From: a virus
Taxonomy: Duplodnaviria > Heunggongvirae > Uroviricota > Caudoviricetes
DNA length: 57,943 nt
Strand: one strand, 5' to 3'
IMG/VR virus record: IMGVR_UViG_643348545_000013
Location: 1-57,943 of that record
Part shown: one piece after another, positions 30,001-33,000 of the stretch
Position numbering within the stretch: position 1 is the stretch's first letter
Layout of the letters: each line of letters opens with the position of its first letter
Position numbers: made by a program

Positions 30001-33000
30001 GCTTGCGAGGTAACACATCGTCCGGTTTCTTCCACCATCGCACCGGACGAGCGACCATGAGGGGACAACGCCGCGCGCCGTTAACGCGGTAAACCCCGGT
30101 GTGTATCGTTTTTGATTATCCCCGCACACTCGCGCAGAGGAGTCTCCCGGTCGGGCTGCGGTCATGGTTAATGCGGGAATACGGCGACGATACAGCGCAT
30201 GATATGTCAGGCTTGAATACCTTTATCCGTTAAAAAGGATATCAGTTAAGTTATCCCGTGCAGGGTATAAGCCATTATCAAGCCCACCAGTAGATGGGCT
30301 TTGTAATGGCTACTTCGCTTTTGCTTCCGCTCGCTTACACCGGCGCTTTTCTTTCTTCTCGGCTTTTGCCATGTCCATGAATGCCTGCATGATCGAGTTC
30401 CGCATCATGTAGCTGACAAAGTGATGATTGACACAGCCGTTGAGGCGCAACTGCTCGCCAAACTCATCCACCGAGGCCAATGCTTCCATCACGCCCTTCT
30501 CGCCTTTCATGAACGCTGAGAAGTCGCGCCCCGCTCTGGAGGCGCATTCAATGACACGATCACTCATCCCGGAAGCCCGGGGATTGTGATCTGCAACTGG
30601 TTAGCCAGGGAGTTAATCTCAGCGATCAAACCAGGTTTCGTGTAGCGCCATGCCGCAAGGCCTTGCCCGCAGAAGCTCGCCATATCTTTTTTCTGATCAA
30701 ACTCATGACACTTCATATTGAGCTGCGCACTTAAGCTGTTGCGATGCTGGAGTTCTCCGGTGAAGTAGTCATCCAGGACTTTATAGGCTGCATATTTAAA
30801 TCCGGGGTTTAGCCATGCTGCATAATCATAAGCAACAAACTTCCCGCCATATGTTCCACCGTGTACACCGCGCTCAGTAAAAACCACAGATTCGTGGTTT
30901 TTCTCCAGCTCGGCTAAGAACTCTTTGGTCTGCTTGTTTCGCAGGTAGTGGTACGGAGATTCAGATTCACTTTTACCACTGGCTTTCCACATATCAGTGA
31001 GGCAGATCATGCCATCTTCAGCGACACGGATTGGCTGATTGAAGAGGGTTAATGATTTCATGTCGTATACCTGTTCTTTGAAATGAACCTTTGCCGCATA
31101 GGAAACCAGCCCACCGAGGCTCGCCAGCACTAACTGGTATCCTCAAAGGCTCATTCCAAAGGGGCAGGCTCGGTGGTTATCATGCGCTGCGGTGCGCGGT
31201 GAAATTCAGATATGAAAAAGCCCACGCGTTTACGTGGGCTGGTGTGCATGACGTCAGGACTAACCGATGAGTTTTAAATCAGCTTTTCGGTGTTTTTTCT
31301 GATCGGTATAAAAATTTTCATGTGGACCGATGCTAAGGAGGTAGAGCTCAAGTTTATCGTCAAGCCAGCTGTAACCCAGAAGCACCAGTTGATTATTCAG
31401 CTGAAATTTATGCACACGAAGAAAACTGAGGTCTCCTTTCTTTTGCGTTCCCAACAGAGGATTATCAATTATTCTGTCGATCTCATCTTCCACAACTTTC
31501 AGTTGCGCTTCCGGGAGTTTACTCAGAGACTTTTCAAAACGCCGACTCTGATAAACATCAATTTCACGACCTGTCTGTTCTTCTGACATAACGCGTTACC
31601 TTGTTGTGTCTGATTTCGCTTTGTGACAGCAGAACTTCGCTAATAAAACTGAATGGCAGATCTGGATTATCTTCAGCTATACGACCAATCTTAGCCCAGT
31701 GCTCAATTTGCTTTGGTATGCTGCGACTTGCGGCATCAGCGTGAACCTTTACGTCACTGACGAAATCATCGTCTAAACGGATGCTTGTTGCCATTATGGG
31801 GTGCCTCTCTGTGGTTGTACTTCATGCGGTGCGTACGCATACGCTATGGAAAAGCGCACCTAAATCATGCAACAAATTGTCGCATAATGCAATCTTTACC
31901 TCCGCAGAAGATTGACAGCATTCATGCTGGCTCTGTTAATTCAGGCACTGAGTACGGATATATTCCTGTGCCCCTTCCAGTTGCTTCTGCATCGTCATCA
32001 GCCGCTCTCTGAGGGTGAAATAATCCCGTTCAGCGGTGTCTGCCAGTCGGGGGCCGGTTGCATTATCCACGCGGGCGGTGCCGGTGGCTTCACGCACGGG
32101 ACCTGGACAGGTGGCGTTGATACGCAGGCTGCGGCGACCAGCGGCAACGTCAGCGCGAAGAGTTTCATTTTCAGCTCTCGCATCAGCTAATTCCCTCGAG
32201 TATTTTGCATCGAGCGCAGCAACATCACGCTGGCGCACCTGCATATCAGTAATGGTTGCGTTTGCCAGCTCCAGCTCTCTGACTTTTTTATCGCGCTGCG
32301 CTTTGTAGGTGATGGCGTTATCGCGGTAATGATTCAGCCCCAGACTAAGCACACCACAGGCTACCAGCAGGACAATAATCACCACACACAGAACACGGTT
32401 CATATCACCACCAACGGATTGCCCAGACCAGAACAGCAATGGCCACAATACGAATGGCAAATGCCATTGCCCGAATAAGTTCAGCACTCATCTTTTTAAA
32501 GTTCACGATTTCAGCGCAATGACCAGTTTTGCCAGCCCATACAGCATCGGAGACACAGCAATACCAACAGCCACCCACTTAATAGCAAAAGCCAGCGCTC
32601 TGCTGATGTCATCAGTCACTGTCACCCCAGCAGCCCCGACGAAGACAACATCACCCAGGCGAGGGACAGAAAAAGAGCAACCAGCATTAGTGAAAATGAA
32701 ATACCGACAATCACACACAGGACCTTTGCCGGCGTTATGAGTTTGTCTGACATCTTTACCCCTTGATAGCAGTAATTAACTGGGCAACCACCCATAAAAA
32801 CGGAATCAGCCAGACCAGCAAAAATTTCCAGTCCATTTTTATCATCTTCATGCTGCGGTAGCTCTCCATGCAGCAAGCAGACCAGCAATCCACTCAACAC
32901 CTTTTGGGGTGAATTTAACCTGCGTAAAAGCATGACCATTGCCCGTCTCGCCCGTTTTCACGCTAAACCGCCCCGCATCCAGGTGATGCGAGTAAGGCGT

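Follow-up and report, generated by a model that had tools for sequence, protein, structure and literature searches.

The window (the whole 57,943-nt stretch of viral DNA that was analyzed), which is a lambdoid and probably defective Escherichia coli prophage, carries directly after its Rz/Rz1 lysis genes two small overlapping genes that very probably constitute a genuine toxin-antitoxin pair, with toxicity, neutralization, and target all predicted. The complete picture proposed here, a functional type II operon of the PF11903 and PF15781 families that is contained within a self-sufficient moron of ~703 nt after Rz/Rz1 and that encodes a toxin acting as an RNase, is judged to have a slightly better than even chance of being correct. 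The pair as such is already known: RefSeq labels it as a RelE/ParE-family toxin (WP_001288263.1) and a 'ParD-like family protein' (WP_001300453.1), both Pfam families exist, and prophage toxin-antitoxin morons are commonplace. No paper was found that mentions the two RefSeq accessions or DUF3423. The value of the locus is as a well-delimited E. coli representative of a toxin family of ~2,000 members, PF15781, that according to a 2025 survey is described nowhere in the literature (Gerdes 2025, PMC11980606). The genes concerned are as follows.

31936 to 32487: Rz (PF03245, E = 1.1e-49)
31998 to 32183: Rz1, embedded in Rz (PF06085, E = 4.4e-21)
31794 to 31564 and 31589 to 31260, minus strand: the gene pair (antitoxin and toxin, respectively), from ORF calling
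31564 to 31794, minus strand: antitoxin gene, 76 aa, ATG start, protein beginning MATSIRLDDDF; ParD_like family, PF11903
31260 to 31589, minus strand: toxin gene, 109 aa, ATG start, protein containing LELYLLSIGPHENFY; ParE-like_toxin family, PF15781

The first-pass annotation had described a 76-aa antitoxin-like ORF that overlaps a 109-aa ORF by 26 nt, and the ORF coordinates confirm this arrangement: the antitoxin-like ORF lies upstream of the toxin ORF on the same (minus) strand and shares positions 31564-31589 with it. The antitoxin-first, overlapping order that was said to be canonical for type II operons is indeed present, in two adjacent and co-oriented genes; the same layout is found in four other genera, and the overlap is also seen, at 26-32 nt, in the Vibrio, Providencia, Pantoea, and Duffyella copies. 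ORFs of similar size are frequent by chance in the window, and the ORF listing holds many spurious ones. For this pair, chance is ruled out by the Pfam E-values, the homologue counts, and dN/dS; both ORFs are real genes because their Pfam scores are three to four times the curated cut-offs, their homologues number in the hundreds, and their dN/dS values are low. In particular, the proposed ParD-like and RelE/ParE-like assignments held up in a profile search, in which the antitoxin matches PF11903 at E = 2.7e-19 (69.3 bits, against a gathering cut-off of 23) and the toxin matches PF15781 at E = 3.3e-33 (113.9 bits, against a cut-off of 28), over profile positions 1-87 of 87. The antitoxin also matches PHROG 16013 over its full length (3e-45), and the toxin PHROG 1213, 'RelE-like toxin' (1.2e-15). 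In homologue searches, the antitoxin had 272 matches and the toxin 563, and the PF15781 domain is present in all toxin homologues among the matches listed. When compared with E. coli and Salmonella copies, dN/dS is 0.08-0.11 for the antitoxin and 0.03-0.14 for the toxin; by these ratios, both genes evolve under purifying selection. Across the 851 nt compared, the window is 100% identical to the chromosome of E. coli SW070917. Neither protein has an NCBIfam model, and the PADLOC v2 defense-system models gave no match for either at E <= 1. No third component was seen in the insert that carries the pair, where none of the antisense ORFs (44, 75, and 98 aa) scores above cut-off for any family and where an Rfam search for a small RNA gave only a meaningless snoRNA match (E = 0.6).

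The pair resembles E. coli K-12 RelBE in that its two small genes overlap, the antitoxin gene precedes the toxin gene, and an operator-like palindrome lies in the putative promoter. In higBA operons the toxin gene comes first and the antitoxin is an HTH protein; unlike Vibrio cholerae HigB2/HigA2, the present pair has its antitoxin first, and that antitoxin is ParD_like. It is also unlike RelB, since it belongs to another Pfam family and has no detectable profile similarity (hhalign probability of 1% or less against RelB and against RK2 ParD). A Foldseek search with the antitoxin model returned no significant match, and a single-sequence search of the PDB returned only noise. The AlphaFold2 monomer (pLDDT 77) is predicted to have unstructured residues 1-8, helices at 9-22, 26-42, and 48-62, and a basic tail, RYVRRTDRS; residues 24-44 are nearly invariant between genera. 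A ribbon-helix-helix DNA-binding N-terminus might be expected from the sequence pattern, but this is a guess because the antitoxin lacks similarity to the RelB and RK2 ParD profiles. Mycobacterium tuberculosis Rv0367c is a PF11903 protein that adjoins a PezT-like toxin and is uninformative for the present pair. A Microcystis 'ParE/ParD-like' pair (PMC7935541) was considered as a relative and set aside, with no tie to PF15781 established.

The signals around the two genes, and the unit that contains them, are given below.

31223 to 31925, minus strand: inserted unit of ~703 nt, comprising promoter, leader, antitoxin, toxin, and terminator stem
31864 to 31892, minus strand: putative sigma-70 promoter, with -35 TTGCAT (31892-31887), a 17-nt spacer, and -10 CATGAT (31869-31864)
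31867 to 31885, minus strand: imperfect 19-nt palindrome, ATGCGACAA-T-TTGTTGCAT, which fills the promoter spacer and overlaps the -10 element
31830 to 31839, minus strand: perfect 10-nt palindrome, TGCGTACGCA, in the ~70-nt leader
31602 to 31598, minus strand: Shine-Dalgarno-like AAGGT for the toxin
31564 to 31589, minus strand: 26-nt overlap of the two ORFs, with the toxin ATG within the last antitoxin codons
31215 to 31240, minus strand: intrinsic terminator 20 nt past the toxin stop, with a 9-bp stem (6 G-C), a 4-nt loop, and TTTTT

That the pair is a moron with its own signals is likely, because there are defined insertion boundaries, a low G+C content, a promoter-like site that is conserved and includes a palindrome, and a dedicated terminator. 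Homology to the prophage of E. coli RM7190 ends at 31222 and restarts at 31926, with only 9 nt between these points in that relative; in the pair-less related prophage, a terminator and rha come immediately after the Rz stop. The G+C content is 0.40-0.47 within the insert versus 0.57-0.62 in Rz. Thus, the earlier suggestion of a moron position at the end of the lysis cassette agrees with a ~703-nt insert that starts directly after the Rz/Rz1 stop and is absent from the relative. Its location between Rz/Rz1 and the packaging module is likewise borne out, with several small genes (a KilA-N gene, an 85-aa ORF, a TonB_C ORF, YlcI/YnfO, and HNH) intervening before the terminase. Absence from a sister prophage, a terminator and a predicted promoter of its own, and deviant composition are all found here, as they are for the lambda morons bor and lom, which are also short inserts among late genes; the insert differs from bor and lom in that it carries a toxin-antitoxin pair instead of a surface or virulence protein and is transcribed in the direction of the late operon. 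The same slot holds the pair in Salmonella prophages that bear a different, lambda-type terminase, while on plasmids the pair adjoins ParB/PsiA (Pantoea) or umuDC (Vibrio). A tblastn search with the toxin gave no match in 50,697 phage records, so that prophages, chromosomes, and plasmids are the only places where the pair is known.

A strict sigma-70 scan found no promoter for the pair, and the promoter therefore rests on a relaxed match, TTGCAT-17 nt-CATGAT (7/12 matches), together with its conservation. Other E. coli and Salmonella copies have TTGCAT, 17 nt, and CATATT; the -10 element is CATAAT in the Pantoea plasmid, and the Vibrio plasmid has TTGCAT, 16 nt, and TATACT. The spacer palindrome, GCGACAA-N-TTGT(C/T)GC, is kept in E. 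coli, Salmonella, Pantoea (where it is perfect, 7+1+7), and Duffyella, while the remaining leader diverges, and it may serve as the operator through which the antitoxin or the toxin-antitoxin complex represses its own synthesis. The 10-nt leader palindrome, which may act as a further operator or fold into an RNA hairpin, is intact in one of three other prophage copies (E. coli L002), substituted in E. coli L004 and Salmonella L009, and missing from the leaders of the Pantoea and Vibrio copies. The gene overlap and the Shine-Dalgarno-like site suggest translational coupling. The terminator hairpin (-16.1 kcal/mol) is specific to pair-carrying loci; in the relative without the pair, a different hairpin is joined to the same T-run.

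As for the toxin, we lean toward an mRNA endonuclease of the RelE type over a gyrase poison, because the profile, the predicted fold, and the conserved residues K50, K61, and HENFY favor it. A single-sequence PDB search found no match. The AlphaFold2 model (pLDDT 89.2) has the RelE/ParE (BECR) fold and matches RelE in Foldseek at 1.4e-5, and the nearest neighbors in sequence and fold, RelE, HigB2, YoeB, and HP0892, are all ribosome-dependent mRNases. When all PDB sequences are searched with a family profile built from 90 sequences, RelE (E = 0.005) and the HP0892/HP0894 RNases are recovered, and hhalign pairs this profile with RelE at 84.7% probability (E = 6.7e-6). The Pfam and RefSeq names suggest instead a true ParE, which would trap DNA gyrase on DNA and block replication as part of a classical ParDE addiction module, but we regard this as unlikely. 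No similarity to characterized ParE toxins was seen at the profile level: the 90-sequence profile reaches no ParE chain in the PDB at E <= 10, hhalign gives 0.2% against RK2 ParE, and the toxin has no PF05016 match at E <= 1. ParE toxins are not known to have the catalytic residues of RelE; the present toxin, unlike those of the ParDE gyrase-poison systems of RK2, Caulobacter, and M. tuberculosis, keeps conserved residues that resemble those of an enzyme. Published phylogeny also places PF15781 within the RelE mRNase subcluster, apart from the gyrase-inhibitor subclusters (Gerdes 2025, PMC11980606). The name 'ParE-like' probably misstates the activity of the family.

The family-conserved residues present in the toxin are K50, K61, and G88-x-H90-E91-N92-F93-Y94. 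K50, H90, E91, N92, and Y94 are each retained in 85-87 of the 90 family sequences, and this near-invariance therefore gives an active-site-like pattern. In the alignment with RelE, the invariant K61 falls at K52, and H90 falls at R81 and also at the His of the HP0892 GSH motif. A Tyr that follows the His by four residues, at the start of the C-terminal helix, is a further resemblance to RelE; this residue, Y94, probably corresponds to RelE Y87, though it lies outside the aligned block. Identity to RelE is only ~18%, and the toxin exceeds RelE in length by 14 residues. Of the five catalytic positions of RelE, two are unmatched, with Q63 at K54 and an invariant L70 at R61. The toxin also departs from its own family consensus, with S in the K23 column and Q in the K/R63 column, where 58 of the 90 members have K or R. 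These departures, and a host prophage that looks defective (gpJ carries an IS4, and the portal gene has a frameshift), would suit a decayed or domesticated remnant whose toxin is no longer toxic and whose antitoxin is kept only as a small regulator. Such a fate is very improbable, however, given that both ORFs are full length, that all of the nearly invariant catalytic-type residues are retained, that the low dN/dS values apply to the toxin as well as to the antitoxin, and that the three most closely related prophage copies in the comparison, from E. coli and Salmonella, also have S23 and Q63. A 553-aa protein (P0311) that matched with seven 'stretches' proved to be a low-complexity repeat protein, unrelated to the family.

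With a RelE-type toxin, the module would work as follows. In the lysogen, the pair would be transcribed from its own weak promoter, TTGCAT-17 nt-CATGAT, and the antitoxin dimer, alone or together with the toxin, would bind the spacer palindrome and repress that promoter. The 26-nt overlap would couple translation of the two genes, and the C-terminal helix and basic tail of the antitoxin would wrap and block the toxin. If the labile antitoxin were not replenished, perhaps upon loss of the element or when an infecting phage shuts off transcription, free toxin would halt growth by cleaving mRNA on the ribosome through K61, H90, and Y94. In the lytic cycle, late transcripts antiterminated by Q would extend through the module as well. 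The biological role could be stabilization of the element or phage exclusion.

The charge of the toxin differs from that of RelE. The toxin has a pI of 6.3 and its helical hairpin a pI of 4.6, both computed as bulk charge; 93% of its close homologues have a pI below 7.5 (median 5.6), in contrast to the strong basicity of the wider family (median 9.5) and of RelE (9.7). Judged by bulk charge, the toxin would not present the basic surface for 16S rRNA/mRNA that is typical of RelE. This loss of the basic hairpin in the subfamily, together with L70 at the position of RelE R61, argues against standard A-site docking, and the conserved polar residues argue for catalysis, so that the toxin might be some other nuclease on the same fold, either a ribosome-independent RNase or a DNA-nicking enzyme. 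Nicking of DNA is a third activity in the superfamily, documented for Vibrio parahaemolyticus Vp1843 according to a citation in PMC7935541. Nothing positive points to DNA nicking here, though, and with its closest sequence and fold neighbors all being ribosome-dependent mRNases, a nuclease of another kind is quite improbable. Also improbable is the proposal that the 109-aa Enterobacterales/Vibrio branch of PF15781 has a docking mode or target unlike the A-site attack of RelE, and that in lambdoid prophages it serves to exclude phages, with the shut-off of host transcription by an incoming phage as the trigger. In this 109-aa branch, the catalytic-type residues are kept while the basic helical hairpin has turned acidic. 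An acidic-to-neutral toxin is odd for a protein that needs to dock on rRNA, and the acidic subfamily constitutes a small structural puzzle.

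On the minus strand of the window, a pair of overlapping genes is found:

31794..31564, minus strand: antitoxin ORF, 76 aa, N-terminus MATSIRLDDDFVSD..., PF11903
31589..31260, minus strand: toxin ORF, 109 aa, C-terminus ...LELYLLSIGPHENFYTDQKKHRKADLKLIG, PF15781

The ORFs overlap by 26 nt (31564-31589), exactly as the first-pass annotation had claimed. Because chance small ORFs are frequent across the window, as seen in the ORF listing, the existence of ORFs is no proof of genes. Profile search places the antitoxin in Pfam ParD_like (PF11903; 2.7e-19, 69 bits, cut-off 23) and the toxin in ParE-like_toxin (PF15781; 3.3e-33, 114 bits, cut-off 28, all 87 model positions), the ParD-like and RelE/ParE-type families named earlier. 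In PHROGs the antitoxin falls in family 16013, of unknown function (3e-45), and the toxin in family 1213, 'RelE-like toxin' (1.2e-15); no NCBIfam or PADLOC model matches either protein. A large protein collection holds 563 relatives of the toxin and 272 of the antitoxin, chiefly from Enterobacterales and Vibrio; among the matches listed, the Pfam domain is shared by all relatives, and the annotation by most of those that are named. Comparison with other copies from E. coli and Salmonella yields a dN/dS of 0.03-0.14 (toxin) and 0.08-0.11 (antitoxin); selection therefore maintains both proteins. Judged from these sequence comparisons, both ORFs are real genes of the proposed families; the earlier observation is confirmed and its interpretation supported.

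The pair is an ordinary feature, annotated before this analysis: RefSeq names the toxin (WP_001288263.1) 'type II toxin-antitoxin system RelE/ParE family toxin' and the antitoxin (WP_001300453.1) 'ParD-like family protein', and window 31100-31950 (851 nt compared) is 100% identical to the E. coli SW070917 chromosome (NZ_CM129862.1). The unit, meaning the pair with its own putative signals, is present in only 10 of 5,426 complete E. coli genomes. Relatives of the toxin are encoded on 76 plasmids (Pantoea, Providencia, Vibrio, Piscirickettsia and others), and none is detectable in 50,697 deposited phage genomes. What mild interest there is lies in an experimentally untouched family, its probable misnomer, and the acidic shift of this toxin branch.

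The name of PF15781 is probably wrong, the family being RelE-like rather than ParE-like. A recent phylogeny, in which the family has no known target and counts as undescribed in published work, places it in a subcluster with RelE from E. coli and from Nostoc, both ribosome-dependent mRNases, apart from the gyrase inhibitors (Gerdes, mBio 2025, PMC11980606). With a toxin model built from an alignment of 90 diverse family members (pLDDT 89.2, pTM 0.78), the top Foldseek matches are HigB2, E. coli RelE, M. tuberculosis RelE1 and RelE2, archaeal RelE, and YoeB; no classical ParDE gyrase-poison toxin is among the best 50. Searched against all PDB sequences, the family profile matches RelE (E 0.005) as well as two Helicobacter RNases, HP0892 and HP0894; no ParE comes up at E<=10. 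By hhalign the family pairs with RelE at a probability of 84.7% (E 6.7e-6), versus 0.2% with RK2 ParE. The invariant toxin residue K61 aligns with RelE K52, and H90 aligns both with RelE R81 and with the GSH-motif His of HP0892; K50, H90, E91, N92, and Y94 each occur in 85-87 of the 90 family sequences. This conserved polar set looks like an active site. Gyrase-poisoning ParE proteins are not known to have the RelE catalytic residues. As caveats, an invariant L70 occupies the position of RelE R61, Q63 that of RelE K54 (K or R in 58 of the 90 members), and Y94 falls outside the block aligned with RelE; in the model, Y94 stands four residues past H90, where the C-terminal helix starts, and by this position is probably the equivalent of RelE Y87. 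With the RelE-type evidence weighed against these caveats and the acidity of the protein, a RelE-type mRNA endonuclease is favored at somewhat better than even chance; a ParE-type gyrase poison is unlikely, as profile, hhalign, Foldseek, and phylogeny (PMC11980606) all side with the RelE RNases.

The toxin has a pI of 6.3 and its N-terminal helical hairpin (residues 1-43, window 31461-31589) one of 4.6; the median of the wider family is 9.5, and RelE has 9.7. Among 120 close homologues, 93% have a pI below 7.5 (median 5.6), and several family-typical helix 1 lysines are replaced in this subfamily, for example by S where K stands in 82 of 90 sequences. Such a lack of basic charge would be unusual for a ribosome-dependent RNase. 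A docking surface for the basic tail of the antitoxin (RYVRRTDRS) is one possible role of the acidic hairpin; alternatively, it may be a sign of a different docking mode or target.

In the antitoxin model, computed for the monomer (pLDDT 77), an unstructured N-terminus precedes helices at 9-22, 26-42, and 48-62 and the basic tail, a pattern which suggests a putative ribbon-helix-helix dimer with a toxin-binding C-terminus. A fold search with this model gives no significant match, and the antitoxin profile has no similarity to RelB or RK2 ParD. Upstream of the antitoxin gene, a strict sigma-70 scan detects no promoter; a relaxed scan yields:

31892-31864, minus strand: putative promoter, TTGCAT, 17 nt, CATGAT

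An imperfect 19-nt palindrome, ATGCGACAA-T-TTGTTGCAT, occupies the spacer, and this layout of TTGCAT, palindrome, and -10 is also seen in Salmonella and in two further E. coli copies. The Pantoea plasmid copy, whose leader is otherwise unrelated, reads TTGCAT-TGC-GCGACAA-A-TTGTCGC-ATAAT; its palindrome is perfect (7+1+7) and its -10 is better; the Vibrio plasmid copy has TTGCAT, 16 nt, TATACT. Antitoxin residues 24-44 are near-invariant between genera, which fits a conserved DNA target. We infer a weak promoter with a candidate autoregulatory operator.

The pair sits in the late region of a lambdoid prophage, in this gene order:

Upstream part, minus strand: Q antiterminator, SASA esterase, holin, lysozyme
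32848-33543, minus strand: ANT/KilAC antirepressor (PF03374, 4.1e-28)
32405-32939, minus strand: three tiny annotated ORFs, between ANT and Rz
Before the pair, minus strand: Rz with embedded Rz1 (PF03245, 1.1e-49; PF06085, 4.4e-21)
Next after Rz/Rz1, minus strand: toxin-antitoxin pair
30564-31130, minus strand: KilA-N/ORF11CD3 gene, just downstream of the pair
Thereafter, minus strand, in order: 85-aa ORF, TonB_C ORF, YlcI/YnfO, HNH
After HNH, minus strand: terminase small and large subunits

This agrees with the proposed location between Rz/Rz1 and the packaging module, with further small genes in the same interval. The antirepressor and the three tiny ORFs interrupt the lysis cassette between lysozyme and Rz. 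The KilA-N/ORF11CD3 protein has a hit to PDC-S22, a candidate defence model in PADLOC (1.1e-8), over only ~30 residues; in E. coli A34 the 5' end of its gene accompanies the pair. The TonB_C ORF (29550-29891, minus strand, 113 aa; PF03544, 1.4e-14; lipoprotein-like N-terminus), between the lysis and packaging genes, is kept in the relative without the pair and is another small cargo gene.

In that relative, E. coli RM7190, a terminator stands directly behind the Rz stop codon, with rha next. Its homology with the window ends at 31222 and restarts at 31926, with 9 nt between these points in RM7190; the unit therefore spans ~703 nt, 31223-31925. Its G+C is 0.40-0.47 versus 0.57-0.62 for Rz, and a terminator follows the toxin gene:

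20 nt past the toxin stop, minus strand: terminator hairpin, 9-bp stem, 6 G-C, -16.1 kcal/mol, then TTTTT

The stem is found specifically at pair-carrying loci; the T-run is common to the ancestral terminator. By sequence, then, the pair is an insertion carrying its own signals (promoter and operator being predicted), which bears out the suggested moron placement at the end of the lysis cassette.

Salmonella enterica prophages have a 90%-identical pair in the same slot (Rz, pair, ANT), together with a different packaging module, lambda-type Nu1/gpA. In three of the four Salmonella prophages with the pair after Rz, a HicA/HicB pair lies on the opposite strand just past the Q antiterminator (locus L009, 1302-1939, and likewise L011 and L012), making two toxin-antitoxin morons per late region. 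In E. coli A34 (locus L002, 6401-6787) the unit lies upstream of Rz, beside a gene for a Panacea domain, known from PanA-type antitoxins; this placement points to the lysis region as a place where toxin-antitoxin or defence cargo generally lands. The unit's plasmid neighbors are ParB and PsiA in Pantoea and umuDC in Vibrio; in the copies inspected from Vibrio, Providencia, Pantoea, and Duffyella, the two genes overlap by 26-32 nt.

The pair could serve prophage or plasmid stabilisation or phage exclusion; the evidence here favors neither. The unit shares the orientation of the late operon that contains it; by lambdoid biology, Q-antiterminated transcripts should therefore read through it during lytic growth. 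According to the RefSeq annotation, the gpJ tail-tip gene (10056-13256) is truncated beside an IS4 insertion (transposase 8529-9875) and the portal gene (22100-24684) is frameshifted, and the prophage is therefore probably defective, unless the portal frameshift is an assembly error. Speculatively, a toxin-antitoxin pair might contribute to the survival of such a remnant. Past the prophage's tail-fibre end are genes for an S6-family (SPATE-type) autotransporter peptidase and a YadA-like adhesin (1-3079 and 3911-5464), which could represent virulence cargo or belong to a flanking island. The integrase of the lambdoid prophage directly adjoins a truncated DUF72 gene, the probable attachment site (region 51891-53204, 53685-55208, 55223-57943); past it come a serine recombinase and then, from a second phage-like element, genes for baseplate and tape-measure proteins.
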